This document shows positions 957-24,327 of a stretch of 64,000 nt of DNA, piece by piece. The translations under genes were made by a program, and so were the position numbers. Below the pieces are notes generated by a model, which was given only the letters and a program-made list of their open reading frames with translations, did no database searches and was not told the origin of the DNA. Each line of letters opens with the position of its first letter. Within the stretch, counting starts at the first letter, position 1. The stretch covers positions 1 through 64,000 of IMG/VR virus record IMGVR_UViG_3300019471_000109; one strand, written 5' to 3'. Origin of the DNA: a virus.

Positions 957-1874
957 TTAAAATTTAAAGAAAATCTAAACTTCTTCAGTTTGGTCCATCT
1001 ATCTAATAATAGGTGTTCTATTTTCAATATAAAGCAATTCACCAGAATGTTGAAGTAAATCATCTTTACGATGAGAATTCCCAGTAGCTTTAATTTTACT
1101 TTTCTAAGTGGAATTTTTTAATTCTGGGTTCATAATTAACCCTAATTGTCTAAACCCAGTATTTCCAGGTAATGTTGTCTCCGGAAAATAAATAGAATCC
1201 ATGTATGCTTTAAATCTAAGAGTATTACATTTTGTTCTGAATACTAATTGATTATCCTAGTCCCAGCTTAATACATTTTTATATCCCCATTTTTCTGGGT
1301 TTTTCTAAAGTTCATCTGGCATAGGAACAACTAGGTATTCATTTGTTACTCTATTCACAACAACATCAACTGGAATCGAATACAAATATTCCCATTTATA
1401 TCCATCTTCCATATCAATCGCATCACCCGTTCCTCTAGGAGCATAAATAGATTCATATTTTGGAGTCCATTTACCGCCAAATTTCTAGCATGTGATTTTA
1501 TCGGTTGCGATATCAATAGAACATTCACCTTCACTCGGAACATCAACACATCTATAAACTTTAATACCTTCACCCGGTGCGATCTGGTTAAAAATACCAG
1601 TATTCACTGCAATAATATCATTAATGTAGAATGTTTTTGAGGTTGCATATCTCTAATCGCCCCAATCCTTTCTTGGAATTACAGCATCAAAATAGGCCTC
1701 TGGTATCTTTATAATACCAACCATGTTATTCCATACGTCTACTATACCAGCAGTGTTATCTAGAGGCATCGGTGGGCTAAAATCCTATTCAGTTTCGCGT
1801 TCAGACCAAGATGATTCTTTACCAAACTACAAATAAATGGAATTTTTATCAGCGGAATCACCCACCTTGTTCAT
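957..1874 (-). CDS. Hypothetical protein, 305 aa, with 8 in-frame TAG codons
   Basis: Single continuous minus-strand frame from ATG (complement 1872-1874) to TAA (complement 957-959). The six-frame track shows only fragments because of the TAGs. Confidence 0.55.
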
Positions 1875-1936
1875 AAAGTTTACTAAGTTTTGTGTTCTAA
1901 ATTTAGATGTAATTAACTATCTATAACTTGGCATGA

Positions 1937-2482
1937 TTAAACTTTTTCAACATACGATTTAACTTTGTTAAATGCTTTTTCATCATCTCCAATGTGCCCT
2001 GAATTATAATCAAGCATAATTGAAGCAGCGATATTTGCATTTTTAAGTTTTGCAATTAAACCATCTAAAAATGTGTCTGTATTGAAATTTTTTGCATCAG
2101 CAACAGTATCTTTCGCAATTTTCATTAATCTTTTTGCATATTCTGTGTATAATGCTCTATAATCATCAGCAGGTTCATCTTTAAATTTTAAAGCTTCTGT
2201 TAAATTATCACGTTCAACCGATTCGAATAATTCTGGGAACATGTCTTCAGCATCTAACTTATCCATGTTATAGCCATCTGGTGATAAAATATATTTTTTA
2301 ACTTTATCTTTAGGGCCAGTGATATCACATTCGTGGCCACGTCTAAATTTAAATTTAATACCAAATTTCTTTTCGGTTTCTTTTTGTTCTTTAGCACCGC
2401 CGTCAAAAATTACATCAGCATCAAGTGTAATATTTTTTTCGGTGATTAAAGATTCGTTCATTAATTCTTGCAAGGATTTCAT
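1937..2482 (-). CDS. Hypothetical protein (181 aa)
   Basis: ORF track; no TAG inside. Confidence 0.6.
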   Translation of the reverse strand: MKSLQELMNESLITEKNITLDADVIFDGGAKEQKETEKKFGIKFKFRRGHECDITGPKDKVKKYILSPDGYNMDKLDAEDMFPELFESVERDNLTEALKFKDEPADDYRALYTEYAKRLMKIAKDTVADAKNFNTDTFLDGLIAKLKNANIAASIMLDYNSGHIGDDEKAFNKVKSYVEKV

Positions 2483-2502
2483 ATTTTACCTCTTTATTCC
2501 AT

Positions 2503-4131
2503 TTAGATAAATTTATTTAATATTCCAAAATCCTTTTCAATTAATTTATATGCATTACTCATATCTTCTTTTGACATATCAGAAATTTTAGATTGAATTT
2601 CTTGTTCAGATAGTTCAACGTATTCAAAACAATATAAATTTGAATCATCTGGGAGTTTATCATATAATTTAATTGATAATTCAATTAATTCATTTACTTT
2701 CTTCGCAAAGAATTCATTATTTTTATGATGTTTACGTTGGAAGAAAACTTTTTCAATTTCAATTGGAATAATGCCACGTTTATCTTTTCGATATAACATG
2801 CCATTTGCTGCTTGAGCATATTCTGTTGAAGTTTCTACTTCTTTATTCAAATATTTTTCAACAGAATGATAATCTGTTCTTCCGGCAATAGTTTCAGGAC
2901 TAATATTCCATTGTCTTACAATTGAGGGATATAAGCTTGTGAGGTCATCTGATACAATCCATCCGTATCTCATTCCAATTTTAGGTTCTTTTACATAAGC
3001 GCCAACATAAGTTTCTTTTGGATGAGATCTTTTCATTGGAACAATTTTATTTTGACTTAAAAGAGAATTAAAAATAATTCCATCCCATGTTGTTACAGGT
3101 GATAATACTTTTTCAAAATTAATATGTGAGTAATATGATAGACTTACCGCTAATAATAAAAATTTTAATTTATTATCAAGCTTTTCAATTAATAAAGTAT
3201 CTTGAATGTTATAATCACAATAACGTTGAGGATCTTCTTCAGCAAGTTTCCATAAAGGACCATCGTATTCAAGTTTATTTTCGCCAAGTTCTAATTCAGC
3301 AATAAAATCTAATTTATATGATGATCTTGCGGTGATTCTGAATTTTTTATATAAAGCAAGATAATCTAAAATAGCAATACCAGCAAATGAATAAGTTTTT
3401 TCCGGAAATTCATCATCAGCGCTTGAACCTTCTGCAATTCTAGAGCCAATAAAGCCAAATGGGCTAAAATTAGATGTGACTTTTTCTCCAAATAATTTAT
3501 TATATCTATTCACCATGTACTGGATATCATAATTGTCAATATTCCAGCCTGTTACAATATGAGGATAATTAGATTTCCAATATGTTAAGTAATCTAATAA
3601 CATTTCTTGTTCTGAATTAAAATACTTATATTTAGCTCGCTTTAAAATTTCTTTAGATAAAGTACTTTTATTTCTGTCCCATTTTCTAGTTGAAAAAAGC
3701 CAGATATCACCTGTAATTGAATCGATGTGAGAAATAGCATCAATTTCTTCTTTTGCTTCATTAGGATATGGGAAACCATTTTTTGAAACTGTTTCAATAT
3801 CGATAGATGCAATTCTTAATTTACTTGCATCAAAACTAACTGGGCCTGGATATAAATCAGCTAAATATAATAATTCAAGATTTTCTTGCCCAAGTACTTC
3901 TTGATTTGCGTCTATCATCAGCCGACGATTATCTCTATATTCTTTAACAGAATTAAAATCAAATCGTTGAACGTTATTCCCGTAAATATCTTGATAACCA
4001 GTTTCATGATTACAGTGCAAAAAATACCAAGGATTCATTTGAAATTTTTCAATTTTATCTTGACCATTTTCAAAATATCTGTGATATAAATATTCACCGC
4101 GCGAATACACATTTGAATAAAATTTATTCAC
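2503..4131 (-). CDS. 43: DNA polymerase (family B, T4 gp43-like), N-terminal gene segment: 3'-5' exonuclease domain through polymerase motif A
   Basis: Strong similarity to the T4 gp43 N-terminus: DIETVS matches T4 DIEVTG, EIDAISHIDS matches EIDAITHYDS, SPVTTWDGIIFNS, and motif A DLTSLYPSIVRQWNISPETI. It ends in TAA before motif B. Confidence 0.9.
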   Translation of the reverse strand: MNKFYSNVYSRGEYLYHRYFENGQDKIEKFQMNPWYFLHCNHETGYQDIYGNNVQRFDFNSVKEYRDNRRLMIDANQEVLGQENLELLYLADLYPGPVSFDASKLRIASIDIETVSKNGFPYPNEAKEEIDAISHIDSITGDIWLFSTRKWDRNKSTLSKEILKRAKYKYFNSEQEMLLDYLTYWKSNYPHIVTGWNIDNYDIQYMVNRYNKLFGEKVTSNFSPFGFIGSRIAEGSSADDEFPEKTYSFAGIAILDYLALYKKFRITARSSYKLDFIAELELGENKLEYDGPLWKLAEEDPQRYCDYNIQDTLLIEKLDNKLKFLLLAVSLSYYSHINFEKVLSPVTTWDGIIFNSLLSQNKIVPMKRSHPKETYVGAYVKEPKIGMRYGWIVSDDLTSLYPSIVRQWNISPETIAGRTDYHSVEKYLNKEVETSTEYAQAANGMLYRKDKRGIIPIEIEKVFFQRKHHKNNEFFAKKVNELIELSIKLYDKLPDDSNLYCFEYVELSEQEIQSKISDMSKEDMSNAYKLIEKDFGILNKFI

Positions 4132-4438
4132 TTTTTACCTCTTCTAAAGTCGTGAAGAAATCACTTAATTTATTTGTTTTATATTTCTTATCTGTAATAA
4201 TTGTAACACATTTCATATTAATTATTTCTACAAATTCACCAGAATAATATTCATTAAACACAAATTCATCTGAATAATAATCATACTTAATTGTTTGGTC
4301 TTCTTTATTTCTTGCTCGTAAAATAAGTTCTTTATTTTGGTCTTTACATAATACATAATAATTATATTGATCATCATTAGAAAAGACACCAGCATTTACG
4401 CTCATCGAAACCAATAAAGCAAATAATAACTTTTTCAT
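4124..4438 (-). CDS. Small secreted protein (signal peptide MKKLLFALLVSMSVNA)
   Basis: ORF track 4124..4489. The start is preferred at the internal ATG with an AAGAGG RBS; the N-terminus reads as a signal peptide. Confidence 0.5.
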   Translation of the reverse strand: MKKLLFALLVSMSVNAGVFSNDDQYNYYVLCKDQNKELILRARNKEDQTIKYDYYSDEFVFNEYYSGEFVEIINMKCVTIITDKKYKTNKLSDFFTTLEEVKSE

Positions 4439-4517
4439 AAAATCCTCTTTATACAAAATTGTTCTTAAATAATATAAAATAATTTGCAAATTATTACTAA
4501 AACAAAGGTTAACTTTA

Positions 4518-5375
4518 ATGAAATTTCAGAATAAGAAAAGATTAATTGACGTCGGAGAAATTGGTAACGCTTAGACCGGCGATATCATTTTTAATGGTGG
4601 CGTAAAAATTAATGAAGTTTTCTAGGATTTGTATAATGTATTTGGTGATAGACGATTACTAAAAGGTAACGATGGTCAAAATTTAATGATCCTTCATGGT
4701 ACTGGATATTATCAAAAACTTCCCAGATCAGAATATACAGCAGAAATAGAAATCGGTTAGATGCATGATATCAGCACATCTGATGGTCCATTAACAATCA
4801 GACTACCGACTAATTGTAAAGCAGGTGAACGAGTAAGAATTTAGAATTTTGATGGTTCATGGAAAAACTTTACTTTATAGGTTGATGCAAATTCTGGCGG
4901 TAATATTGATGGTAAGCAAGTACAAAAATATAATCAAGATTTTTGTGAAATTCAATTTGTGTGTACAGATGATTCACAATTAAACGTTCGTGGATGGAAA
5001 GCTTTAGTTACTCCGTTATATGGGAATCATTATGTTCCTGTAGATGATATTATTGATCTATAGAGACAACAAATTCTACAAAAAGAAATCTTTAAAACAA
5101 AAGACTATACTGCATTAAAATTATTAATTTCTGGCGAAGAGATTATTAATACATCAGAACAGACATATAAACAACTTATGGAAGTTCTTGTTTTAACTGA
5201 TAAAGATCAAGTATTAAGTACTGAATACGGTGTTTTATATACTTCTCCAGAAAAATTATTTACTGTTGAGTTTGTTTTATCCCAAGATAAATCTACAGTG
5301 TATGCAAAAATCTAGTAGAGTTCTACAAAACAACTTAGAATTCAAATTAAATCTATAGAGCAAATCAAAATTTAA
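4518..5375 (+). CDS. Hypothetical protein (285 aa) with 8 in-frame TAG, including a tandem TAG-TAG
   Basis: Continuous frame from ATG 4518 to TAA 5373-5375. It is on the opposite strand between the two polymerase segments. Confidence 0.5.
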
Positions 5376-5376
5376 A

Positions 5377-5401
5377 AAAAGGAGGCAATGCCTCCTTTAT
5401 T
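5377..5401. terminator. Bidirectional terminator (AGGAGGC aat GCCTCCT + T-run)
   Basis: Hairpin plus T-tract. Confidence 0.55.
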
Positions 5402-5669: not shown

Positions 5670-6791
5670 TTAAATTTCAAATAATGAACTTAAAGAAGCT
5701 TTTTTCTCATGTTGCCATCCAATTGCTTCAGTCATTAATTTTAATGGAGCATCAAATCCTTTTTCAATCATTGTGTTCAAATCTATCATATTTTCAAGAT
5801 CTAAATTAAATTCTTTTGGCGGCTTAGTTCCTGTTGGCCAACCGAACACTTCACCAACTGTATTAGGCATTGTTAATCTTAACATATAGATTTTATCACC
5901 TGACTTAATTGGTTCAAGGTCTTTATGATATTGTTGCAGTTTATTATATGCAGCAGCAGCCTTATGGTTTTGCCCTGCTCCTTTTAATGTAACCCATAAA
6001 TTAGTATCAATATACTTGTCAAATCCATTTACTGATGAAATTTGCGCAATTTGATCTAAAGGTTGGGATCTATATTCTTCTTTAACTTTCTTAACATATT
6101 TTTGAAGATCAGATTCATCTTTAGTTAACATAATTTCAATTGCTTTTTTCAAAGCTTTTTGCGCAAATGGTGGTGTACTAGATTTCTGAGTTTCTAATCC
6201 CATTACTTTTAGTTTATATGTTAGATGGCCAGTATCATCGTATACTCTATCACCTTCGGAATCCCACACTACTGCTGCATATTTTTTCTTAGCTGTCCAA
6301 AATGCTGAACTTGCAATAATTTCGCGGTCCATGAACATTAAATGTTCTAATGAATTCATATATTTATGGAGATCTTGATATGCATTGTCAATAGCAGGCT
6401 GAATTAATTTATTATGAAGTTCATCAGCTTTATTAACTCTCTGTTCCATAGATGAATCAGGATTTCTTGATATATACATTTGCATTAACGGGTCTATATT
6501 AACATAAGCACTATCGGTATCTTGGTAGACGATATAATCTTTATCATTTGTTTTTAATACTTGGTTTAGTTTATTACTAATAGCATGACCACCCCATTGA
6601 ATAACAAGTTGACCTGTAGAAGTAACTGCTTCTGCATTTCTTAAATCATAAAATCTAAAGTGATTATTCCCTAGCGCGCCATATAACTAATTGATGAGGA
6701 TCTTACGCGCATATTGATTTACATATTCTATAATAGAAATACTCGTTAAGTGTTTTTTGGTATTTTTTAATTTTTCTAATGATGGTTTCAT
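5670..6791 (-). CDS. 43: DNA polymerase (gp43-like), C-terminal gene segment: motif B (KILIN-TAG-LYGALGN), motif C (YQDTDS) and thumb; 1 in-frame TAG at the conserved Ser of motif B
   Basis: Similarity to the T4 gp43 C-terminal third (HLMFMDRE, MGLETQKSSTP, ASLSSLFEI). It has its own ATG and a GAGGA RBS. The TAG is at complement 6687-6689. Confidence 0.85.
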
Positions 6792-6800: not shown

Positions 6801-6830
6801 AAATAAAAAAGGGTTTAGAATAATTCTAAA
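6801..6830. terminator. Palindromic hairpin (GGGTTTAGAAT AATTCTAAACCC), likely a bidirectional terminator
   Basis: Perfect palindrome between the capsid gene end and the start of the polymerase C-segment. Confidence 0.5.
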
Positions 6831-6855
6831 CCCAATTATAATTTATTAATCTTAA

Positions 6856-8136
6856 TTAATTACTTTTTAATTTAATACCAACAAACATCTATAACTTCTA
6901 TTTGCCGATTAAGTTATTCCAATCATCACCACGATTAATCTTTTCATTCTAATCAATAAAAGGATTAACTGATAATGCATATCTTGTCATTAATAAGACG
7001 TTATTATGGAAACTCATAGGATCTCTTGAAATATAAATCTATGAGCCATCTTCTTCTTGGTAAGGGCAATAATATAAAGAACCGATAATATCATCTGGAA
7101 TATATTCTTCATCTTCAGGCTCTTCATCTTTTGATACAGCTTCAGCAATATCAATATTATGTTTACATCCAACTACAAAATAGTCAAATTTGCTATAAGT
7201 GTCAATGTAAATTTTGAGACCTGATTTTAAATACCCATGAGATCTTGTCATTTCTGATTCTTGGTTGAAAACAACTAAACCAGCACCACATAATAAACCA
7301 TACACATCAGGAGATACAATTACATAAGTAGCTGAATATGTTGTGTTCTATAACATTTTCGCTGCTGCAGCACCGATCATAGAATTGATATCTCTACCAA
7401 TTTGCCATAAAGGGTCAGTTCTTGTTGATAAATCAATAAAACCATTAGTAATACCCAATGCTTTATCATCAAAACGTTTACTTACAGTGATTAATTTACT
7501 AATAATATCTTTATTAACTTCATTAACCAAAGCTGTTGCTAATGTATCCTCAACAATTGCGACAGAATCCATTCCATTTGCCTCAAGATCTTGAATTAAT
7601 TCTTGTGTTAATTTGATCTAAATTTTTCTAGTTCTACATGGAACAACCCATTTACCAATTTCAAATTTAGCTTCAATAGGTGCTTCACCTTCAGTATATG
7701 AAACTTCAGCGGCGTCTGAATATAATCTTAATGTTCCATCGATAACAGCTTTTAGCACAACAACTGATAAATCTGCATCAGCACTTAATGTTCCAGCTTT
7801 AACTGCGATATAAATTGCATCATTATCAGGCGTTCTATATACTTTATCTTTAGTTACAGATAAACCACTTGATAAAACCGGTAAATCTTTAACTTTATTT
7901 TTACTATTTGTGCCAGTAACAGTTAAATTATTATCATGTAATGTTTGACCATCTTCAGTCAAATATTTTAACCCAAAAATTTGTGCTTCTGGGTTATTTG
8001 TTTGTTGAATAGCTACCATATCACGGAAAACTCTTGAGGCAACTGTTTTCTATAATGATACTAAGTACGGGCGAGTTCCCTAAATTGCGTTGGTTTTTGT
8101 CTATTCTTGTAGTAATTCTTCTAAAATTCTAGCCAT
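6856..8136 (-). CDS. 24: gp23/gp24-family capsid protein (closest to the T4 vertex protein gp24), 426 aa, 9 in-frame TAG
   Basis: The N-terminus MARILEELLQE-TAG-TKTNAI matches T4 gp24 MAKINELLRESTTTNSNSIG. QDLEANGMD, KIYIDTYSKFDYFVVG and LMTRYALSVNPF are also conserved. The track ORFs 7039..7305, 7348..7572 and 7618..8019 are pieces of this one frame. Confidence 0.75.
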
Positions 8137-8148: not shown

Positions 8149-8892
8149 TTATTTTGTAGAAGTTAAGTACTCATTTACAAGTAGTAAAAGCTCTGTATAT
8201 CCAGGAGCAAATAATACTTTATCTTCAGTGATCCAATAATATAAGTTTGTATTTGTATCGCGATAGAACACAATTTTGTCTTTTACTGAAATTGCTTGGT
8301 TATAAACTTTTCTAGTAGATGGATCTTTAATTGTTCCAGATAAAATTTCATTTGCTTGATATGTAAAAATGAAATCAAATTTAACACTTTGAGTGCTTGT
8401 TAAAATAGGATAGCCAGAAACATCTGTATCAGATTTTTCTTCTGTAGCTGTAGGTTTCTATTCGGTTTCTTCTAAAGTGTCTGTATGGGCTTCTAATTCA
8501 TCCTAAACAGTATTAGTTTCTTGTACTTCAGGTTGTTCAGTAACTTCTGTAGTTTCTTGAACATCTTCATGATGTTCAGTATCTTCAACTGTTTCGGCAG
8601 TTGTTTCAGCAGTTTCTTCTGGACTAGATAATTCAAAGCCAATCACTAATGGCTGAGGCTCATCTTGAATTGTAATATAAAGTTCAACTTTATCTTCTGG
8701 GTTGTCAAATTTAATAACAGCAGATTTGTTTAATTTTACTTCTGGCGTTAAAATATTTGCTGTAGTCTATTTTACTTGAGCAGTAATATTTCTTTGACCG
8801 GTAATTTCTTTTCCATCTTGTTCAATTTTTAATGGAACTGTATAAACGCCGTTTTCAACGGTATATTCTGGAGTATAGTTTAATCTAATCAT
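8149..8892 (-). CDS. Acidic Glu/Thr-rich protein, possibly a prohead core scaffold (gp22-like by position and composition); 3 in-frame TAG
   Basis: Continuous minus frame ending in TAA TAA. It sits immediately upstream of the capsid gene. The gp22 assignment rests on position and composition only. Confidence 0.4.
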
Positions 8893-8973
8893 TTGCAAAT
8901 TTTCTCTATTAACTATATTTTTATTTTATTATTTATTATAAAAATAAAGGCGATTTAATAATCGCCTATAAAA

Positions 8974-12857: not shown

Positions 12858-12880
12858 AAGGAGCTTAATTGCTCCTTTTT
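12858..12880. terminator. Rho-independent terminator (GGAGC ttaatt GCTCC + T-run)
   Basis: Hairpin plus T-tract directly after the uvsW TAA. Confidence 0.6.
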
Positions 12881-13052
12881 AATTTGTTATGATGCATCGA
12901 CACCCATATTATACTTCCCAACCTTCGTTAGAAATAAATCCATCCCAAGCTTCTGCTGGCGAGCCGTTCCATCCTTCAGAAAGTGTGCCACGTAATTTAA
13001 TAGAATTAATGATTTTACTTAATTCTAAATTTAATAAACCTAATTTACTCAT
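12879..13052 (-). CDS. Small hypothetical protein (57 aa, 1 TAG)
   Basis: Minus-strand ORF in the same direction as the downstream operon. The antisense + ORF 12889..13071 is an alternative reading. Confidence 0.3.
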
Positions 13053-13062
13053 TAAACACTCC

Positions 13063-13257
13063 TTAACTTAATAATTGATATTCAGAAATCTCATTATTTA
13101 CTGATTCAGTAATTGGTTTATCATGATAATTTTCATTATCTTTTGTTAATAATTCAACCATTACCTGGGCACAATAACCTTTATGGACTTTCTTGCCCAT
13201 AATTTCTTCTACATCTTGATCTAATAATTCAGTTTTACAAATAGGACAAATTCTCAT
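13063..13257 (-). CDS. Small Cys-containing protein (CPIC...C, possible zinc ribbon)
   Basis: ORF track. Confidence 0.5.
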   Translation of the reverse strand: MRICPICKTELLDQDVEEIMGKKVHKGYCAQVMVELLTKDNENYHDKPITESVNNEISEYQLLS

Positions 13258-13258
13258 T

Positions 13259-14119
13259 TTATACCTCTAATTCTTTTATCGGATTTTTGTATAATCTTTT
13301 TTCATATTTTTCTTCATATCCATAAGGATTTGAAATAAACTTAATACCTTGTTCTTCAAATTCAATTGGGCTATGAATATGTCCAGAAATCCAATAATTT
13401 GGCTTTCTTTGTAGATCTTTAAACATTTTAGAACAATCAGTAAAATATGAATAATCTAATAATTCAATTTCCGGTTTCCAGTTTCTAAGTTTTCTAAAAT
13501 TATCAACAAACTTTTGCAAAGGAGCATGATGTGTAACTACAATAAATGCTTGATCTTTTCTTAATCCTTGTGAAGCAGAAATTAATTTTTGCCAAGATTG
13601 ATCAAATTCAACAAATGCATCTTCTGGTAAAAATTTTCTATAACCAGCTTTTAGAATCATTTTTCCGAAATCATTCATTTTTAATTTTGCTTCTAACATC
13701 GCCATCGGTTCTGCCTTATTAAAATTTGTCCATAATGTTGCACCGTAAATTCTTACGGGTTTATCTTTTATAAACAAATCAATATATTCTTTTTCTAAAA
13801 AATATAAATTAGAAAATAATTCTTGTTGTATTGATTTGCAAAAGAATTTAGAATCAGTTAATTGATTTTGGTAATTTTCATGGTTTCCCTTAATTAAAAT
13901 AACTGGGCAACCAAAAGAACACATATGTCTGATAAATGTGATATATTTCCCTTTAGCAGTTGAGTTATGACATTGACCTATATCACCAGCTAAAATAATT
14001 AAATCAAATTCATCTGTTTCTTTAATTTTTAATAACTTAAAAACAGTTTCTTTATCAGATAAATCAGAATCCCAGAAGTCAATATGAAAGTCAGACGCAA
14101 TAAATGTTTTTAATTTCAC
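13259..14119 (-). CDS. Calcineurin-like metallophosphoesterase
   Basis: DFH, GDIG and GNHE metallophosphatase motifs. It uses a GTG start. Confidence 0.7.
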   Translation of the reverse strand: MKLKTFIASDFHIDFWDSDLSDKETVFKLLKIKETDEFDLIILAGDIGQCHNSTAKGKYITFIRHMCSFGCPVILIKGNHENYQNQLTDSKFFCKSIQQELFSNLYFLEKEYIDLFIKDKPVRIYGATLWTNFNKAEPMAMLEAKLKMNDFGKMILKAGYRKFLPEDAFVEFDQSWQKLISASQGLRKDQAFIVVTHHAPLQKFVDNFRKLRNWKPEIELLDYSYFTDCSKMFKDLQRKPNYWISGHIHSPIEFEEQGIKFISNPYGYEEKYEKRLYKNPIKELEV

Positions 14120-14533
14120 TTAGAATTCCCCTTGTTCAAATTTATCCCTGTCTAGAATATTCTTCAATGCAAATCCACGTTGTTTAATTGCTTCTAATGC
14201 TTCTCGAATAAAATCTAATTTTAAGCTTAATACATATAACTTCTAGTCTGCTTTTTGTAATTCAGTATCAGCCGCTAAAACAATTTTCAATTCAGACTTT
14301 TCATATGATTCCATACAAATACCTTCGCGGCCAGTATAATAATCAAGTCTTGCTTTTAATGTTCTAGATTTTTCATTTTCAGCTTGCTTCATTAAAAATT
14401 TTACGTTCTAAAAATAATTAAGCCACTTAGAATACAAGTAAGGATTATTTGCGATTTGCTATTGCAACCCAATTAGATTAATTTTAATATCTTCAGCAAG
14501 TTCTTGCTGTAATTGTTCTAAATTTTTTTCCAT
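14120..14533 (-). CDS. uvsY: UvsY recombination mediator (137 aa, 3 in-frame TAG)
   Basis: Clear similarity to T4 UvsY (LYSKWLN, KARLDYYTGR, YEKSELK, RGFALKNI). Confidence 0.8.
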
Positions 14534-14547: not shown

Positions 14548-14572
14548 AAAGGTAGACTTATTATCTACCTTA
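14548..14572 (-). terminator. Terminator hairpin (AGGTAGA...TCTACCT) downstream of nadV
   Basis: Inverted repeat plus T-run on the minus strand. Confidence 0.5.
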
Positions 14573-14603: not shown

Positions 14604-16244
14604 TTAGTTCATTCTGTTATTTCTACGAACATCATCGAATGAATATTCTTTAATCAATTGACCGTTTTCAAATACAAGTTCAAGTTTACCGCCTTCATCT
14701 TGCCCTTTTGACAAATTATCAATAAAGGTTTCAGAATCTAAAACTTTTACACGGCCTTTTTGCGATTTTTTCATTCCGCTATCAGTTTTTGGATCTTTGA
14801 AAATCGGAACTTCTTTACCGTTAATAATTGCTGAAGTTGCTTTGATTGCAAATCCAAAAGTATCACGAGTATTATATTGGAATGTATATGATCCGATACC
14901 TAAGACGATATTACTTGAAGCAAAACCTTTTTCTTTTAATCTTGAAAGAATTTGTTCAGCACGTTCTAAAGTAATAGAATCGCCGTAAATAGCACCGATA
15001 TGAGGATCTAAAACTTTATATCCTTTATCATTAATATATCCACCGAAAGTTTCATATAAGCACTGAATCAAGCCTTTTACATAAGGTTCATTTGTTACTA
15101 ATTTGAAACTAGGTTCAAAAATATTTGTACTTGTTACTAAATAGATATCTTCATTAATAATACAATATTTAGGACCAAAGACTGGCGAATTTACATAATA
15201 ATTAAATGCGTCTTTTAATGAATTGAAGTTAAATGCTTCAGATAAATCTACGCCACAAATAATTTCAACAGGATCGCCAGAATCTGGGCGAATAACCAAT
15301 TTACCTTCACGATTTAAAATTTTATCTTTTAACGCAGGCAAAACATTTTCAACCACGTTCCAGAAATCATATGTGTCCGATACAACTGAGAAAATACCTT
15401 CTTTATATAAATCAAGTAAAAATTCAAATGTTTTCTTATCATCTAAACCGTGTGAACTCATTACAGAATGTTCTGTTGCAGGAATACTTGTTCCAACTAA
15501 ACCTTCTGCGTTATAATATTTTTCAACAGCAGTAATTGCTGGGATTGTATCAGTTCCAACAAATGATACCAAATGGCCTAATCCAGATAATTCAGCAGAT
15601 TCTAAAGAACTCATTCCACGCATTGAAAAATCATGACCTTGGAACATAATATGATTATTATTATCACAAGTTTCTTCAGAGTATTTTTCAAAGATTTTTC
15701 GATATGCTAAAGAAATAGATGCAGAAGTCATTGGTTGCCATGTAGTGCAGCTAATTAAAGTTTCAAAATAATTTGTTAACCAATAAAATTTAGGATGTGT
15801 ATTTTCGATTGTCATTACCGGAACTTTAATTCCAACCGCTTCGCCTTCAGGAATTGCTTTAATTCTTAGCGGTAAGTAGCCAAGTTCATGAAGTTCTTTA
15901 AGGTGTTCGCCATTGTCTTCAACACCTAATGTATTTTTAATAAATGCTTTATACTGAGCTAAAACTTGTTTTAACGGAACTTTAAAGAAGTTATCATTAA
16001 AGAAATCAATTAAGTATTTTTTAATTAAGTATTGAAATCCTAATACAACAACTTGGTCAATAGGTTTTTCATTAACTTTTGGAGCATATTTATTTGTACG
16101 AGGAGTTAATGTACTATAAATTACTTCAGTTCCCGTTGGGTATTGCGCTCGATGCGAAATTTTATAAAAATCGCATAATAAAGCAGGGATACTTGATGTT
16201 TTTAAAATATTATTCATTAGTCTCTCCTTTATAATTGTAGTCAA
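14604..16244 (-). CDS. nadV: Nicotinamide phosphoribosyltransferase (NadV/NAMPT)
   Basis: 546-aa ORF with the overall NAMPT architecture. No TAG. Confidence 0.85.
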   Translation of the reverse strand: MTTIIKERLMNNILKTSSIPALLCDFYKISHRAQYPTGTEVIYSTLTPRTNKYAPKVNEKPIDQVVVLGFQYLIKKYLIDFFNDNFFKVPLKQVLAQYKAFIKNTLGVEDNGEHLKELHELGYLPLRIKAIPEGEAVGIKVPVMTIENTHPKFYWLTNYFETLISCTTWQPMTSASISLAYRKIFEKYSEETCDNNNHIMFQGHDFSMRGMSSLESAELSGLGHLVSFVGTDTIPAITAVEKYYNAEGLVGTSIPATEHSVMSSHGLDDKKTFEFLLDLYKEGIFSVVSDTYDFWNVVENVLPALKDKILNREGKLVIRPDSGDPVEIICGVDLSEAFNFNSLKDAFNYYVNSPVFGPKYCIINEDIYLVTSTNIFEPSFKLVTNEPYVKGLIQCLYETFGGYINDKGYKVLDPHIGAIYGDSITLERAEQILSRLKEKGFASSNIVLGIGSYTFQYNTRDTFGFAIKATSAIINGKEVPIFKDPKTDSGMKKSQKGRVKVLDSETFIDNLSKGQDEGGKLELVFENGQLIKEYSFDDVRRNNRMN

Positions 16245-17073
16245 ATGAATTTGATGTAGTTACTGATTTAAGATCGTCAAGATCTTTTAGTTTTCCTGAA
16301 AAGAATGATCTTTCAAGATGCGATACAATTAAATGAAAACCTGGAATAAACCAACGTTTTTTAATTTCATCAATCGCGCCTATAAATGTTCCTCCATAAG
16401 AACAAATATCATCCACAATAACAACTTCTTTATGGTCGAAGTCATTAACATCAGATAATACTTTCAAGTCAAACGATAATAACTTACCGGTGTTAAAATC
16501 TCTGATTTTTTCAATTGAAATTGCGCCATAAAATTCATTTGCTAAATGACCATAACGTTTAACCGCGGTTTTATCTGGAAAGCAAATTACATAATCCTTT
16601 AATGTTTTTCCAAGTGGAATTTCTGCTATTTTAAATGAATTATAAATTAACGAATCAATTTTGTTAATATTTTCTACATTTTTAACAACATTCAATAACA
16701 TATCTGAATGAGCATCATTGACAATTACTTTTTCAAATCCCAATGAATTTATGAAATCCGCTGCATATTGCAATGAAAAGAATTGATTAGGTGTTTTTAC
16801 ACGGTCCATTCTTGCGTACGGAAAATACGGAATATGTAATTCTTTAAAATTTTTATAATAAGGTGGAATTCCAGGCATACCTTGTTTCATGCTTTTGATT
16901 TTTTGAACAATAAACCATAAAGTCATAAAATCTTTATCATCTTTATAATGCCATTTGATAACAACATCTTTTGATTTCAAAATTGCATTTAGATTTTCTT
17001 CTGATAACTCAAGAATTTGTTCTCCAACAGGGTATTCATTTTGTATAAATTCCGTTCCGTTTATCGTAATCAT
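16210..17073 (-). CDS. prs: Ribose-phosphate pyrophosphokinase-like (Prs; PRPP-binding motif VVIVDDICSYGGTF)
   Basis: Type-I phosphoribosyltransferase/Prs motifs. The start is set at the internal ATG with an AGGAG RBS; the track's N-terminal extension overlaps nadV. Confidence 0.7.
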   Translation of the reverse strand: MITINGTEFIQNEYPVGEQILELSEENLNAILKSKDVVIKWHYKDDKDFMTLWFIVQKIKSMKQGMPGIPPYYKNFKELHIPYFPYARMDRVKTPNQFFSLQYAADFINSLGFEKVIVNDAHSDMLLNVVKNVENINKIDSLIYNSFKIAEIPLGKTLKDYVICFPDKTAVKRYGHLANEFYGAISIEKIRDFNTGKLLSFDLKVLSDVNDFDHKEVVIVDDICSYGGTFIGAIDEIKKRWFIPGFHLIVSHLERSFFSGKLKDLDDLKSVTTSNSFDYNYKGETNE

Positions 17074-17207
17074 AAGATCTCCTATTAAGTTAAACAAAAT
17101 AATTTGAATTTTAATAATAATAATTAAAGAAATTACTTTTATTTGTAAAAATAGTATCATCTAGAATGTACTTTTTCATCTTAAATGATAAATTATATCA
17201 GATAATA

Positions 17208-17585: not shown

Positions 17586-18113
17586 ATGAATATATTTCCT
17601 AATAAATAGATAGCTCATAATATAAGAGTAGAATTTCCTTAGTTAAGAGATCAGACTGTTGCTAGTTCATGGGCAGCTCAGATGACTCAGTTACCTTAGT
17701 TTACATTAAATGCTTCTCAGATTGCAAATGGTCCTTGGATGATGTCTAGTATTCCAGCAGCATCAGTACAGTTTGAACCTATCACAATTTAGTTTTTACT
17801 TGATGAGAAATGGCAAGTATACGAAGAAATGTATAAATGGGCTCTAGGTGAAGGTGATTATATCAAAGGTCATTAGAATGAAATAACTACAACTCCTAGA
17901 GATATGCTTATTCATGTGTTAGATAATAAAAATGAAAAGATTGTAATGACATTCAGATTTTCTAAAGCATTTCCTAGTATGTTTGGTGGCGTTGATTTCG
18001 ATTACACAGATGAGCAATCTACATATAATAAACTTCAAATAACCTTCCAGTATGCATGGTTTACTATTGAGAGAAATGGCGAAACATTATATAAAGCTAA
18101 ATTCAAGAAATAA
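17586..18113 (+). CDS. 19: Tail tube protein (T4 gp19-like), 175 aa, 5 in-frame TAG
   Basis: Similarity to T4 gp19 (N-terminal NIRVEF versus NLFQVEI; the C-terminal half). The track ORF 17904..18113 is its C-terminus. Confidence 0.65.
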
Positions 18114-18842: not shown

Positions 18843-19109
18843 ATGGACCAAACTCAATTATTATAGCAATTACAACAACAAAATGCTGCGTTAAAAATTC
18901 GTGTATTTGATGCGGAAGAAGAATTAAACCATATCAAAACAAATATACAATCGTTTTTGAATGGTGTTGCTGATTTACTTCAACAAGATCAAATTACTCT
19001 TCAGACTGTTTATGATTATATTAAAGAGATTCATCCTGAATCTCAAAAAGAAGCAACTGATACTAATAATGATAACGGTGAAACATTATTGTTAGAGGGT
19101 AAAGAATGA
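18843..19109 (+). CDS. Small coiled-coil protein (88 aa, 1 TAG)
   Basis: Continuous frame; its stop TGA overlaps the next ATG. Confidence 0.45.
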
Positions 19110-19552
19110 GTAAAGTAAATTATGTTGGATGTAATCTTGGTAAAGTTGCTCAACAGATGATTTCTGACCTTTATAAAGAATATAAAATTCCAGAAGAAAA
19201 TCAAGTTAACTTAGACGATTTACATATTACTATTTTCAAGTCAGCTGAATTATTTGATTTTGATGACGATGAAAAAAATCTTTTAGAAGCTTTAGATTTT
19301 AATGAAGTAGAAATTGATTATTGGACACCAACTGGCAATCAAATGATTCTAAAAGTTAAATCTCAATTTTGTAATGATATATTTGAATCGTTACAAAAAA
19401 TTGCGAAACCGATTTATGATGATTATATTCCTCATATCACAATCGCAAGAGATTTACCGGTTGAAGTATTAAATACTTTACCAGAAAGATTAACTAAAGT
19501 AAAATTGAAATATTATCCAATTATTACAGAAGTTTATTCTAAAGTTCTTTAA
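19106..19552 (+). CDS. 2H phosphoesterase (LigT-like) paralogue
   Basis: HITIF and HITIA motifs (two H-x-T-x). Confidence 0.7.
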   Translation: MSKVNYVGCNLGKVAQQMISDLYKEYKIPEENQVNLDDLHITIFKSAELFDFDDDEKNLLEALDFNEVEIDYWTPTGNQMILKVKSQFCNDIFESLQKIAKPIYDDYIPHITIARDLPVEVLNTLPERLTKVKLKYYPIITEVYSKVL

Positions 19553-20137: not shown

Positions 20138-20234
20138 AATATTTTAAATCAGAATACTAACAGCAATAATTATTTTTATATTTTTCATGGTTAGATAGAA
20201 CGATAAAACAGTATTCTGTTTTAAAATATTTCAT

Positions 20235-20308: not shown

Positions 20309-20531
20309 AATTATAAAATAAAAGTTTATACATAATTTTGTATGATATAATAAAACAGAATTACGTAATCGTGAGTGAACCACGTTAATAGTTCGGTAAG
20401 AGAGGCAAAGTACTCCTTATGGCTAAAACAGAGGTGTAGTTAGTAAAGACAATGTCTAAAGTCGAATTACTAAGTTTAATTTTATATTAAATGGTTTATA
20501 GATACCCAAACGAAATCTAAGAAGACACGTA

Positions 20532-21299
20532 TTATGTATTCTTTTTGCAGTATTTACTACAAAATTTTACTTTAGATTTTCTTTTATTATTAGTAGAAAA
20601 TTCTTTGTTACATCTATCACAAATGTATGTATATTTTGGTTTGTAATTTTGATACATTTCTTGTAATTTTTTATTAGGAAAATTAACTTTAAACCAATTG
20701 AACATAAAATCTAAATCTTTCTTATATAATATTTGTATATTATATCCTTGTGATTTTGCAGCATTTAATTTTAAATCTACTAATGGGGTATGAAATCCTT
20801 TTATTTCTATGATTGTATTATCTCCTAGAATAAAATCTGGATAATATTTTTTATTATTATCATATAAAATATAGAAATCACATCTTTTGAATTTTATATT
20901 ATGATGTAAATTATAGATTACCCATAGTAATTCATATGTTGACCCGCAAAATATATTGTTATAATAACCCTGGATAGATCGACCACTATTTTCTCTATAT
21001 CCTCCGGTGTTACCTTTATTAACATTAGAAATATGTTTCGCAGCACATTCTAGGGAACAACATTTTTTATTCTCTTGACATGGATTGACATACATAATTT
21101 TATTACAAATAATACAATTTTTAATAATTTTAGGCTTCTTTAATTTTTCGGAAGCTTCTTTAAATTTAATCTAATTTTTGATAGATTTCTATAATTTTTC
21201 TTTATGTTCTTTAGACCATGATCTGCTATTAGCACATTTTCTAGAACAGAAAGCGCCGGATTTATTATGTAGTGTTTTACATTTAGGACATTCTTTCAT
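20532..21299 (-). CDS. Free-standing nuclease, probably a homing endonuclease: three CxxC...CxxxC zinc-ribbon repeats plus a PD-(D/E)xK-like core (YYPDF...IIEIKG); 2 in-frame TAG
   Basis: Track ORF 20532..21095 extended upstream through two TAGs to ATG (complement 21297-21299). It lies between tRNA genes, as segB does in T4. Confidence 0.55.
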
Positions 21300-21360
21300 A
21301 ATATTATTTTAAATAAAAAGTTATATATATTGATTATTTAAATAAAATCAATTTAAAAAT

Positions 21361-21388
21361 AAGGGTTCGATTCCCTTACGGAATACCA
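21361..21388 (+). pseudogene. Isolated tRNA 3' fragment (T-arm AAGGG TTCGATT CCCTT + ACGGAAT + A + CCA)
   Basis: T-arm and 3' acceptor strand with CCA, but no upstream D-arm or anticodon arm. Confidence 0.4.
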
Positions 21389-21508
21389 AATAAAAGTTTA
21401 CATACATAAATTTTTATGTATTATTAAAAAGAATTTTGGATTAACTACAGCAACTTAATTAGACTTGACTTTTAATCAATAATCTAGAAAGAATAATCCG
21501 TTTTATTT

Positions 21509-21584: not shown

Positions 21585-21606
21585 AAATTTATTCTATTGA
21601 GTCTAT

Positions 21607-21695
21607 GGAAGACTGGCAGAGCGGTCTAATGCAGCGGATTCTAAATCCGACAACCGGACGTATCCGGTTCCCGAGTTCGAATCTCGGGTCTTCCG
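21607..21695 (+). tRNA. Amber-suppressor tRNA with tRNA-Ser identity and a CUA anticodon (tRNA-Ser(CTA)); the anticodon is at 21641-21643
   Basis: Type-II tRNA with acceptor GGAAGAC/GTCTTCC and G73 discriminator. D-arm GCAGAGCGGTCTAATGC with a 3-bp stem as in E. coli tRNA-Ser. Anticodon loop TTCTAAA has U33, CUA and A37. The long variable arm AACCGGA-cgta-TCCGGTT and T-arm CCGAG TTCGAAT CTCGG follow. CCA is not encoded. Confidence 0.8.
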
Positions 21696-21781
21696 AGAAA
21701 ATTTTAATTTTAGAGTTTTCCCGGAAGATTAAAAATGATTGAGGTTAGACTATTTTGGAATAGTAGTAGAAATATTTCTAT

Positions 21782-22429
21782 TTGTATAAAATTACAAATT
21801 TAGTTAATAATAAAATTTATATCGGTGCTCATTCAACAACAAATTTAAATGATAATTATATGGGCTCTGGTAAGCTAATAAAATTAGCAATTAACAAATA
21901 CGGTATTAATAATTTTAAAAAAGAAATTTTAGAATTTTTTAATTCAGTTGAAGAGTTATATAGCAGAGAAAAAGAAGTTGTTAATCTGGATTTTGTGAAA
22001 AGATCTGACACATATAATTTAATTGTAGGCGGAACTGGTTAGTGGTTTTACGTTAATAAATTTGTTAATTCAAATGAGTTTATGACTAAAATCGGAAAAC
22101 TTGGCAACGAGGCATTTTCCGCTAAACTGAATAATGATTCAAATTTTAAAAATTCTTGGAAAATAAAAATATCTAAAGCTAAAAAGAATTTTTATAAAAA
22201 TAATCCGGAAGCAAGGTTTAAAAATAGATATAAACATGATGGTTTTAAACATTCCGAAGAAACTAAATTAAAAATGAGAGAAATAAAAAAGAAAAATCCT
22301 CCGGTAGGAGATAAAAACTCTCAATATGGCACGATGTGGATTTGTAATTTAGATTTACAACTAAATAAAAAGATTTCAAAATATGAACAAATTCCGGATG
22401 GTTGGATTAAAGGCCGGAAGGTAAAATAA
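21782..22429 (+). CDS. GIY-YIG homing endonuclease (SegB-like) with a NUMOD-like DNA-binding motif; 1 in-frame TAG
   Basis: GIY-YIG N-terminus ([17 protein letters not shown]...R...E). Track ORFs 21782..22042 and 22082..22429 are in the same frame, joined by a TAG. The C-terminal [15 protein letters not shown] is a NUMOD3-like motif. It sits inside the tRNA cluster as segB does in T4. Confidence 0.75.
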
Positions 22430-22473
22430 ATAAGTGTAAAAAAATACTAACAGCAATTATTTGTCGCTGAATG

Positions 22474-22545
22474 TCGGCGGGTAGCTTAATTGGAAAAGCA
22501 GCAGACTGAGAATCTGTATATCTTGGTTCGAATCCAAGCCTTGTA
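22474..22545 (+). ncRNA. tRNA-like element with an unpaired acceptor: good D-arm (GCTT/AAGC), anticodon arm (loop CTGAGAA) and T-arm (CTTGG TTCGAAT CCAAG), but 5' CGGCGGG and 3' CCTTGTA cannot pair
   Basis: Hand-folded. It is either a degenerate tRNA or a tRNA-like structure. Confidence 0.35.
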
Positions 22546-22615
22546 AATAGTATTTTGTTTTTAATTAAAATGAGTTTTATTAAACCAGAATTCGAACAGC
22601 AATTATTTTCTTAAA

Positions 22616-22722: not shown

Positions 22723-22800
22723 TGCGATGAATTAGAGCTGGTGCACTAACTGGTCTCATAAGCCATGATTAGGTGGGTTCGATTCTCACCATCGCAACCA
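22723..22800 (+). tRNA. tRNA-Met or tRNA-Ile2 (CAT)
   Basis: Acceptor TGCGATG/CATCGCA, anticodon loop CTCATAA, T-loop TTCGATT, CCA encoded. The D-loop is slightly long. Confidence 0.7.
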
Positions 22801-22968: not shown

Positions 22969-22974
22969 ATTTAT

Positions 22975-23099: not shown

Positions 23100-23339
23100 T
23101 TGGTTACTCCTTTTTATTATAAGCGGAGCACAGAATATAATATGAAATATGTGTTTAAATTATTAAATCAGCCTAATACAGATTTAAATTTGAATTTAGA
23201 TGATTTGTATATCGGTGAGTATCAAAAGAGCATTACAGGTGATCTAGTCATCAAAATTACATCAAATATTCAAGAAACTAAATCGTATGATTTTTTAATT
23301 CCAACTGATAAAGCAGAAAAACTTTATACTTGGCAATAA
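23100..23339 (+). CDS. Hypothetical protein (79 aa)
   Basis: ORF track. Confidence 0.5.
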   Translation: MVTPFYYKRSTEYNMKYVFKLLNQPNTDLNLNLDDLYIGEYQKSITGDLVIKITSNIQETKSYDFLIPTDKAEKLYTWQ

Positions 23340-23406
23340 AACTATTTACATTTGTTAAAATTTTTGGTATTATATATTTCTATTAAACAACAAAGAGGAA
23401 TATAAA

Positions 23407-23667
23407 ATGGCTTGGAATGATGGATATGATAGTTGGAGAACTGCAGAACCAGAACCAACAAAAGCTGAAATGTTTTCAGAAAAATATGTTGAAGAAAAAT
23501 CTGAAGAAATTGTAAAATTTTTACAAGGATATGATGAGTTAGATTTATGTGAATTTGTTGATTGGGATAAGTTATCAGAAGTGTTATCGGAAAAATCTGA
23601 AGAAGCACGACAAGATGCTAAAGACCAAGCAAAAATTGATGCATATGAATCTAGATTCGATTACTAA
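23407..23667 (+). CDS. Small acidic protein (86 aa)
   Basis: ORF track. Confidence 0.55.
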   Translation: MAWNDGYDSWRTAEPEPTKAEMFSEKYVEEKSEEIVKFLQGYDELDLCEFVDWDKLSEVLSEKSEEARQDAKDQAKIDAYESRFDY

Positions 23668-23669
23668 AG

Positions 23670-23693
23670 AAGGTGGCGAATGCCACCTTTATT
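23670..23693. terminator. Bidirectional terminator (AAGGTGGC gaat GCCACCTT + T-run)
   Basis: Hairpin between convergent genes. Confidence 0.6.
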
Positions 23694-23694
23694 T

Positions 23695-24327
23695 TTATGC
23701 TAATAGTTCTTTATATTCTCTAGTTCTATCTTCTAATCCAATTGTGCCGCCATTAACTCTTTTTGTTAATAACACAAAATCAGAGATTCCCTAAAGTTTA
23801 TTTACATCCCAAAAGAAAACACCAGTCAAGACAATCAATTTAGCTGAACTTAAAATTTTATCGGGATTTGATAAAATTTCTGGGTCACCTAACCATTTCT
23901 AAAATCTTGTGTAATTATCTTTTCCTGTTAATTGAACTACACCACGACCACGATATTTCCAACCGTCGCCCGTAGATGCAGGGCCATTTCCCATTCTGTT
24001 TGCATACACAATATTTGCGATTCCAGCTTGGTCGGCTTTTTGAACAATTACGCCTGCTTTGTTTTTAATGTAACCATATTTCTATGATGTTATTCCTGGA
24101 AAATATTTTGGAAATGTTTTTCTTAAACCATCAGAAGAGTAATTTAAATTTTCCTAAAATTTCTAAAAACCAGCTGATTCATGGGCACATTGAGCAATAA
24201 ACATGGCTAACTGATTATCGGTCTAAATACCAGCTTTTTGTACATTCTAAATGATCTCCTGATAAATTCCGGGTAATGCTTTTGGGTATAATTTGTTGAA
24301 CTTTTGTTCTGTTAATTTAAAAGCCAT
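23695..24327 (-). CDS. Endolysin, glycoside hydrolase family 19 (chitinase-like lysozyme), 210 aa, 7 in-frame TAG
   Basis: GH19 signatures [31 protein letters not shown] and INGG..G, in a single continuous minus frame. Confidence 0.75.

Follow-up and report, generated by a model that had tools for sequence, protein, structure and literature searches.

Crass-like and Lak phages that read TAG as glutamine (genetic code 15) are the closest described systems, and it has been proposed that late and lysis genes in these phages are gated by the recoding (Borges et al., bioRxiv 10.1101/2021.08.26.457843). Proteomic validation of the TAG-to-Gln recoding has been reported (PMC9523058). In the Agate and Jade phages, which read TGA as tryptophan, a 'code change module' is written in standard code and the lysis genes downstream of it are recoded; an early gene also contains a heavily recoded homing endonuclease, and this recoding has been read as delaying production of the endonuclease (bioRxiv 10.1101/2021.08.26.457843). 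So far, the gating hypothesis rests on comparative genomics of uncultured gut phages. Here we describe in-frame TAG codons in IMG/VR virus record IMGVR_UViG_3300019471_000109, positions 1 to 64,000 (the whole stretch analysed, hereafter the window), which comes from a T4-like phage. On alignment evidence TAG is a serine codon in this DNA, and its use divides the genes into two sharply distinct classes.

T4 itself offers two further points of comparison. The ribosome-binding sites of T4 lysozyme e and of I-TevI are sequestered on early transcripts. The phage described here shares with T4 a gene repertoire and an AsiA homologue, and the same kinds of gene (lysozyme, homing endonucleases) would be kept untranslated early despite read-through transcription. 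However, T4 uses the standard code and relies on RNA structure and late promoters for the block, whereas here the block would be an in-frame TAG. T4 psu1+ is a laboratory amber-suppressor mutant of the T4 tRNA-Ser. In both cases a T4-type phage has a serine tRNA with a CUA anticodon, predicted here also to insert serine at UAG, but psu1+ was selected in the laboratory and serves no recoded genes, while the tRNA gene in the window is a fixed natural one for 126 in-frame TAGs in 64 kb.

The window resembles the TAG-to-Gln phages in several respects. In-frame TAG is confined to a subset of the genes, recoding affects structural and lysis genes by preference (endolysin, spanin, tail tube), and replication genes are largely in standard code. 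Both kinds of phage encode a CUA suppressor tRNA, and a gene for release factor 2 (RF2) has been found in TAG-recoded phages as well as here. However, the amino acid is serine rather than glutamine, and the phage is T4-like with a probable gammaproteobacterial host, whereas the phages of code 15 are Crassvirales or Lak phages on Bacteroidota. The TAG-containing genes of the window are also scattered as small units among early genes, and the two classes are sharply binary (0.31 versus 0.01 of serine codons). As in Agate and Jade, endonucleases are recoded (the GIY-YIG and HNH endonucleases of the tRNA cluster carry TAGs) and the RF2 gene is free of the recoded codon; the stop codon and amino acid are different, however, no aminoacyl-tRNA synthetase was seen, and the RF2 gene is not beside the lysis genes. 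What appears to be new is the serine assignment, the T4-like lineage, the binary split, the placement of TAGs toward 5' ends, a low-TAG tier of replication genes and the pairing of RF2 with an ArfA-like peptide. No report of TAG-to-Ser in phages, or of recoded T4-like phages, was found in the literature searched, which omits much of the subscription literature, and we know of no standard translation table in which TAG is serine.

Distribution of in-frame TAG codons

The window is the first 64 kb of the 151,383-bp JGI metagenome contig 3300022582, Ga0248032_1046 (genome ~151 kb); its final 12,386 bases are identical to positions 51,615-64,000 of Ga0248032_1046. The GC content is 29%, and T4-type genes lie on both strands. 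Open reading frames (ORFs) were called with TAA and TGA as the only stops and TAG as sense, and the proteins were annotated by PHROG, Pfam and NCBIfam scans. The summed length of ORFs of at least 100 amino acids (aa) is 14,453 aa in the standard code, 19,270 aa with TAG as sense and 16,795 aa with TGA as sense. With TAG as sense, full-length profile matches are obtained for gp8, gp9/10, the head protein, UvsW, gp19 and the endolysin, and of the 91 ORFs that reach 60 aa, 76 end in TAA and 15 in TGA. The non-overlapping set consists of 96 ORFs (19,703 codons) with 126 in-frame TAGs and 1,283 standard serine codons. ORFs within the tRNA cluster, together with 23324-23686(-), were judged spurious; neither the class statistics nor the promoter-motif comparison includes them, but they are counted in the 96-ORF totals.

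TAG is very unevenly distributed over these ORFs, as a preliminary description of this DNA had claimed. The Pearson dispersion is 394, while 20,000 length-proportional multinomial simulations gave a mean of 95 and a maximum of 203. No TAG is present in 43 of the 70 genes of at least 100 codons, where 18.9 such genes would be expected. The pattern extends through the whole window and past its ends, beyond the region 957-24327 from which it was first described.

The unevenness follows gene class. TAG makes up 0.319 of all serine codons in nine virion and lysis genes (51 TAG, 109 standard Ser), 0.350 in uvsW, uvsY and 49 (21 and 39) and 0.259 in five nucleases or homing endonucleases (22 and 63), compared with 0.011 in 28 early/middle genes (7 and 656). 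The timing of these classes is predicted from T4 orthology and from weak promoter motifs. The late and early shares differ with a Fisher odds ratio of 45.6 (p=1e-39), and per-gene TAG densities differ both for late versus early genes (Mann-Whitney p=2e-8) and for nucleases versus early genes (p=9e-6). Each pooled class is homogeneous (chi2 p=0.77 and 0.48), and therefore two rates describe the data. In the late set TAG is the top serine codon, at 30.8% against 29.2% for TCT, with TCA and TCG lower accordingly.

Base composition and codon bias were considered as a cause and rejected. GC and GC3 are alike in late (0.291/0.193) and early (0.295/0.171) genes, and out-of-frame TAGs per 1000 codons are similar (late versus early, 21 versus 26 and 17.5 versus 12), in contrast to 24.9 versus 0.7 in frame. 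A dependence on gene length and composition alone, which the preliminary description had set against a class bias, is not what is found: the share is 0.26-0.35 versus 0.011 at equal GC and GC3.

At the level of single genes, the TAG counts given earlier for UvsW, gp19, the gp24-like protein, endolysin, o-spanin, the small GIY-YIG endonuclease and the secreted nuclease were all reproduced. A gene placed at 958-1874 is indeed TAG-rich, with 10 TAGs, but its coordinates are 957-1934(-). The list of TAG-free genes holds for the polymerase N-terminal part, NadV, rIIA, topoisomerase 39/60, Dda, Rnl1, Rnl2, primase, the adhesin and the OmpA/PlpD-like protein; gp52 has no internal TAG, but its standard stop is TAG. 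The genes uvsX and 41 had been counted among the TAG-rich genes and have just 1 and 3 TAGs (4-6% of their serine codons). It had been argued from these genes and from uvsW that early-type genes are TAG-rich and that the logic may differ from that of known systems. However, uvsW is driven by a late promoter in T4 (PMC3016281), and uvsX and 41 are low in TAG.

Amino acid assignment and the suppressor tRNA

The alignments identify the amino acid at TAG as serine, and not as the glutamine of the systems to which the TAG codons had first been compared. When UvsW is aligned with 108 standard-code homologues, TAG columns 30, 208, 241, 259, 282 and 406 hold serine in 94, 90, 68, 95, 54 and 108 of these, and none of the 16 TAG columns has glutamine as its commonest residue. 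Across 62 TAGs of the window that could be aligned to two ~75% identical relatives, the relatives have serine at 24, TAG at 15, threonine at 6 and glutamine at 3; by this alignment the residues facing TAG form the substitution spectrum of serine. The TAG of the polymerase C-terminal part falls on what we take to be the serine of the family B motif KxxxNSxYG (KILINXLYG), and one of the TAGs in gp41 lies within the presumably conserved motif YIXMEMS. Reading TAG as glutamine is ruled out by the UvsW columns, the alignment to relatives and the class II, serine-type tRNA. Gene callers and public protein databases translate the clade with Q at TAG (code 15), and the stored sequences are therefore wrong at every TAG. 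The error puts an incorrect residue at about one third of the serine positions in the structural, lysis and nuclease proteins of the clade. One clade member is labelled in a database as Herelleviridae, which is at odds with the T4-type gene content.

The tRNA cluster lies at 19.9-23.1 kb and includes the gene for a tRNA with a CUA anticodon. Its predicted fold is of class II, with a 7-bp variable-arm stem, the acceptor stem GGAAGAC/GUCUUCC and discriminator G73. It has what we take to be the identity elements for E. coli SerRS: the long variable arm, G73, G2:C71 and A3:U70. Wherever a match spans at least 88% of the tRNA (9/9 phage records and 6/6 E. coli genomes), it is annotated as tRNA-Ser, and the Tyr and Asn annotations are confined to matches over its first 44 nt. 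SerRS does not read the anticodon, and for this reason no phage aminoacyl-tRNA synthetase is expected to be needed and suppression is easily reached through a serine tRNA. The mechanism would not be bound to one amino acid, TAG being assigned to serine here. The earlier claim that the TAG-containing genes can be completed only with the phage CUA tRNA is supported.

Several other sequences in the cluster are tRNA-like. At 20330-21395, a 3' tRNA half (~21360-21390, GGTTCGATTCCC...CCA-like end) lies ~1 kb from a possible 5' tRNA sequence, with the HNH gene 20532-21299 between them on the opposite strand. The arrangement suggests a tRNA gene that an insertion has disrupted or that carries one within it; the region gave no match to any group I intron family, even at E<0.1. 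Two tRNA-like sequences were not called by ARAGORN: 22480-22540 (Rfam 52 bits, partial, model positions 6-65), which may be truncated or rearranged, and 22723-22797 (31.5 bits, anticodon CAT). The motif AACAGCAAT(A/T)ATTT occurs three times between tRNA genes (~20157-20175, 22448-22465 and 22600-22615) and could be a processing or promoter signal.

Position of TAG within genes and transcription signals

The TAGs are concentrated toward the 5' ends of genes. The first fifth of the gene contains 36/100 TAGs and 36/230 ordinary serine codons of the same genes (odds ratio 3.0, p=7.5e-5). The first TAG has a median position of codon 13, against 29.5 after random reassignment of TAGs over the serine sites (p=0.0014). 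The bias persists (p=0.0075) without the nine TAGs that precede the first profile-aligned residue, which are possible start-codon artefacts. The base following TAG is A in 53% of cases, compared to 36% over all codons (p=2e-4); in E. coli, UAG is suppressed more readily when an A follows it. In the GIY-YIG endonuclease directly 3' of the suppressor tRNA (21755-22429), TAG TAG TAG occupies codons 3-5 (21761-21769), counted from the inferred TTG start.

The sequence TAAATAA, which resembles the T4 late promoter, is found within 70 nt upstream of 6/12 TAG genes that have an upstream gap and of 0/25 TAG-free genes (p=4e-4 in an exploratory test of 11 k-mers). The TAG-containing units are also flanked by terminator-like hairpins (Table 1), in keeping with separate transcription. 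One exact copy of the T4 late promoter TATAAATA is located at 44824-44831, 28 nt upstream of the TAG-containing tail assembly chaperone 44406-44795(-). A generic sigma-70 scan found 135 sites in the window and 126 in shuffles, and is uninformative in such A+T-rich DNA.

Relatives and flanking genes

No close cultured relative was found, megablast matches being limited to tRNA and nadV fragments. The N-terminal part of the polymerase is ~40-44% identical to that of Vibrio, Cronobacter and other cultured T4-like phages, and an AsiA homologue and T4 core early and late genes are identified by PHROG matches in the window. The gene content is of T4 type, and the AsiA-like gene is a marker of a T4-type early-to-middle programme. 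The host is probably a member of the Pasteurellaceae, judging from the PlpD-like gene (55-59% identity) and an ArfA-like gene.

The partition of genes is kept in relatives. Over 100 protein clusters, 57-99% identical, belong to the clade, and their contigs are 135-185 kb long. At 73-76% identity, UvsW, UvsY, the head protein, sheath and tube keep TAGs, although mostly at other positions, whereas Rnl2, NadV and Prs have none and the phosphoesterase has at most one. At 62-71% identity, too, NadV, Prs and Rnl2 lack TAG. A walk along the contig by exact 35-mer matching gave nothing in the viral or metagenome contig sets, and ~20 kb past the window start were read from a 97%-identical relative. In such relatives all structural genes identified past the window start have TAGs (gp8, neck gp14, gp13, fibritin-like, an S74 tail fibre with 27 TAGs, gp12-like, gp11, gp10 and gp7; pooled share 0.24).

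Past the window end, the same contig carries a gene for RF2 and, further on, one for an ArfA-like peptide, as well as a run of small TAG-free ORFs and a small endonuclease-like ORF with 4 TAGs. No frameshift site was seen in the RF2 gene. ArfA recruits RF2 and works with it. The phage RF2 and the ArfA-like peptide could supply termination and ribosome rescue that do not depend on release factor 1 (RF1). Genes for the two subunits of one enzyme lie on the matching contig piece (L005, on which 12491-13495 correspond to ~64,105-65,109 of the contig) and fall into different codon tiers: NrdA (L005 17465-19138(-)) has 5 in-frame TAGs, 12% of Ser+TAG, and the adjacent NrdB (L005 19148-20128(-)) has none.

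Possible function of the recoding

These observations probably reflect a gate at the level of translation, in which the split use of TAG as serine locks late and potentially toxic genes, in addition to transcriptional timing of the T4 type. Genes for the start of infection (replication, nucleotide metabolism, host take-over and RF2), being essentially free of in-frame TAG, would be readable under the presumably standard code of the host. In the late-type genes (virion, endolysin, spanins, uvsW, uvsY, 49, nucleases and homing endonucleases) TAG stands for about one serine in three, preferentially in the first few dozen codons; with the host machinery alone, RF1 would terminate translation near the 5' end. 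Between these classes lies a low-TAG tier made up of the polymerase C-terminal part, UvsX, gp41 and NrdA. Full-length products would be obtained through the suppressor tRNA, presumably in competition with RF1, and the phage RF2 would be able to carry termination at TAA and TGA. The gating itself would then be a selected function. Its logic is the one already put forward for the TAG-to-Gln and TGA-to-Trp phages (Borges et al.), which offers the simplest reading of the data.

A fuller scheme can be put forward only tentatively. Members of this large, uncultured T4-like clade may switch genetic code in mid-infection, when 5' TAG locks are opened by an early tRNA-Ser(CUA) and RF2 with ArfA takes over termination and rescue without host RF1. 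Replication too would have to wait, held back by single TAGs in the polymerase motif, gp41, UvsX and NrdA. The T4 framework gives a timing class for almost every orthologue and the probable Pasteurellaceae hosts are culturable, which makes this a good test system and the gating hypothesis directly testable. The 31% versus 1% split and the 5' placement of TAG could also guide the design of suppressor-dependent gene locks.

Several observations weigh against translational gating. The timing classes are borrowed from T4, which is a distant relative given the polymerase identities above. Exact TATAAATA has only four sites in the window and does not discriminate TAG genes; one of the four is 22 nt upstream of the TAG-free PlpD-like lipoprotein gene. 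The TAAATAA enrichment is suggestive, coming from an exploratory comparison of AT-rich spacers. The window yielded no MotA, a 224-aa candidate (45060-45734) having no PHROG or Pfam match, and gp55 and gp33 are absent among the window annotations from general PHROG and Pfam scans, with no search aimed at them. The suppressor tRNA appears to have an early-type promoter, and therefore any delay must come from accumulation of the tRNA or from competition with RF1. Weaker N-terminal constraint or misplaced start codons could account for part of the 5' enrichment. The signal-peptide protein 39996-40562(+), beside the spanins, is TAG-free (P=2e-4 under the late rate), as are several likely late or periplasmic genes. 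Conversely, essential early-type genes contain sense TAGs (the polymerase motif serine, three in gp41, one in UvsX and five in NrdA), and the gate is therefore not purely 'late'. Lastly, just 15/62 TAG sites are conserved as TAG in the ~75% identical relatives, which also fits neutral turnover.

This rapid turnover is one of the points that favour the main rival, in which the pattern arises passively, as a side effect of purifying selection on early genes. Early genes would have been cleared of TAG since their translation precedes the supply of suppressor, later genes would gain TAG by mutation and drift, and timing would be purely transcriptional. The late-gene TAG share of 0.31 is indeed close to that of TCT, the other A+T-rich serine codon (0.29), and the TAG-containing units already look insulated by hairpins, with late-promoter-like motifs. 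However, drift would not be expected to concentrate TAGs 5' relative to the other serine codons of the same genes, to bias the following base to A, or to leave three TAGs in a row after the start of a homing endonuclease. The DenB-like and small GIY-YIG nucleases, which are early in T4, are TAG-rich here. Among serine codons only TCG leads to TAG in a single step, and a share of 31% needs many non-synonymous or two-step paths. The TAG genes would, moreover, still depend physically on the tRNA under this explanation, which we regard as rather unlikely.

Gating can also be set against explanations in terms of conflict or of gene origin. TAG may block the use of late or toxic genes by the host, by co-infecting standard-code phages or by satellites, or it may accompany an attack on host RF1 termination in which RF2 and ArfA of the phage sustain translation. 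The presence of genes for RF2 and an ArfA-like peptide just past the window, the restriction of ORF ends to TAA and TGA, and the presence of homing endonucleases and nucleases among the most TAG-rich genes are all in line with this. No RF1 inhibitor was identified, however, and rIIB, gp52 and 41216-41527 end at TAG in the standard code, suggesting early use of RF1. Conflict in place of timing seems improbable to us, although it is compatible with the timing model and sequence alone cannot tell the two apart. A mosaic origin, with TAG-free genes recently acquired from standard-code hosts or phages and TAG-rich genes as the ancestral recoded backbone, is very improbable. The adhesin has a GC content of 0.376 against ~0.29 for the phage, and the PlpD/OmpA-like protein that follows it is 55-59% identical to Pasteurellaceae proteins. 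However, the TAG-free set consists mostly of core T4 early genes (polymerase, primase, topoisomerase, rIIA/B, Dda, Rnl1/2 and AsiA) whose GC and GC3 match those of the TAG-rich set, and the lack of TAG at 62-71% identity marks NadV, Prs and Rnl2 as old residents. One family also has paralogues in both classes (Acb1-like 275-829 with TAG, 19106-19552 without). Horizontal transfer was accordingly rejected as the reason why genes lack TAG, with the possible exception of the adhesin/PlpD pair, the only one that looks host-derived, and even there the transfer is not recent. The suggestion in the preliminary description that TAG-free cargo such as nadV is a recent acquisition was not upheld: freedom from TAG is the state of core early genes at the same GC, and NadV and Prs lack TAG in ~70% identical relatives.

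Other features of the window

Coordinates are collected in Table 1. Further TAG-free genes are Rnl1, Rnl2, dNMP kinase, dCMP deaminase, phosphoesterases, gp31, MazG, DexA and Pnk. The adhesin is a YadA-type trimeric autotransporter of 694 aa, and the lipoprotein after it is of BamE/OmpA type (PlpD-like).

Table 1. Genes, RNA and sequence signals of the window and of the adjoining contig, with their TAG content (codon totals and share of Ser+TAG where available)
Feature	Position	Strand	TAG	Remarks
Acb1-like 2H phosphoesterase	275-829	+	3	
gp8-type baseplate wedge protein	957-1934	-	10/325 codons, 34% of Ser+TAG	Pfam Phage-Gp8 on identical gene in relatives
gp9/gp10-like baseplate protein	4518-5375	+	8/285 codons	
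gp24/gp23-family head protein	6856-8136	-	9/426 codons	
Protein without known function	8149-8898	-	3	Same unit as head protein
UvsW helicase	11349-12857	+	16/502 codons, 36% of Ser+TAG	
UvsY	14120-14533	-	3/137 codons	
gp19 tail tube protein	17586-18113	+	5/175 codons	
HNH endonuclease	20532-21299	-	2	In tRNA cluster
GIY-YIG homing endonuclease	21755-22429	+	4	Directly 3' of suppressor tRNA; TTG start inferred
Endolysin	23695-24333	-	7/212 codons, 44% of Ser+TAG	
Putative i-spanin	40565-40966	+	2	N-terminal membrane segment, coiled coil, adjoins o-spanin; no family match
o-spanin-like lipoprotein	40957-41259	+	5/100 codons	Lipobox LLGC; no family match
Small GIY-YIG endonuclease	42438-42857	+	6/139 codons, 50% of Ser+TAG	
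Tail assembly chaperone	44406-44795	-	3	Sole minus-strand gene of its neighbourhood
DenB-like endonuclease	52528-53178	+	3	
Endonuclease VII (gp49)	55202-55681	+	2	
Secreted non-specific nuclease	57715-58446	+	7/243 codons	
PAAR (gp5.4-like) spike tip protein	58874-59158	+	2	
DNA polymerase, C-terminal part	5670-6791	-	1	Low-TAG; at motif serine (KILINXLYG)
UvsX	32525-33592	+	1	Low-TAG; at codon 26
gp41 replicative helicase	33821-35245	+	3/474 codons, 6% of Ser+TAG	Low-TAG
rIIB	51323-52492	+	1 (52463-52465)	Only TAG is the standard-code stop; read-through adds 9 residues
gp52 topoisomerase subunit	53175-54518	+	1 (54507-54509)	Only TAG is the standard-code stop; read-through adds 2 residues
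DNA polymerase, N-terminal part	2503-4131	-	0	42 Ser codons
NadV + Prs	14604-17160	-	0	57 Ser codons; TAG-free in relatives too
Primase	35479-36531	+	0	
Dda helicase	38573-39949	+	0	
Topoisomerase 39/60	46282-48183	+	0	Family from preliminary description and sequence motifs
AsiA-like anti-sigma factor	48460-48786	+	0	
rIIA	48807-51320	+	0	76 Ser codons; identity from preliminary description
YadA-like adhesin + PlpD/OmpA-like lipoprotein	59466-62379	+	0	82 Ser codons; host-like
RF2 gene	contig ~64,105-65,109		0/342 codons	Just past window end; TIGR00020 455.7 bits (cut-off 370); SPF and GGQ motifs
ArfA-like peptide, 52 aa	contig ~67,518-67,676			KGKGSYSRK motif
Amber-suppressor tRNA, anticodon CUA, Ser-type	21606-21696	+		91 nt; ARAGORN; Rfam tRNA 49.2 bits
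Sigma-70-like pair TTTACA-N16-TATTAT	21397-21424	+		Upstream of tRNA-Asn/tRNA-CUA pair; consensus match only
TAAATAA (T4 late-promoter-like)	8929-8935	-		31 nt upstream of 8149-8898/head-protein unit
TAAATAA-like sites (starts)	4466, 17494	+		
TAAATAA-like sites (starts)	2519, 14589, 21340, 24383, 24397, 44829	-		
Terminator-like hairpin	8948-8967	-		Between TAG-free Rnl2 and TAG-containing unit
Terminator-like hairpins	834-855, 5378-5398, 6811-6833, 12856-12879, 14549-14571			Bracket other TAG-containing units

The signal-peptide protein 39996-40562(+) is 12% serine and has a WHESS motif recalling lytic transglycosylases. Its gene is directly upstream of the TAG-containing spanin pair, and if the product acts in lysis it would break the rule that lysis genes carry TAG.

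The Acb1-like / 2H phosphoesterase paralogues both belong to phrog_755. The copy at 275-829(+) is in a late-gene neighbourhood and the copy at 19106-19552(+) is beside early genes. The isoforms of rIIB and gp52 made early and late could differ, by 9 and 2 extra C-terminal residues respectively, according to whether the terminal TAG is read through.

Some UvsW homologues bear Hint/intein or LAGLIDADG domains, including one that is 93% identical over the aligned part (46% of the query), which indicates inteins in uvsW of close relatives. The polymerase is split into two genes in reversed order, the C-terminal part (5670-6791(-)) being upstream of the N-terminal part (2503-4131(-)) on the coding strand. 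Between them lie the late baseplate gene 4518-5375, on the opposite strand, and two small ORFs, and the same layout is found in relatives.

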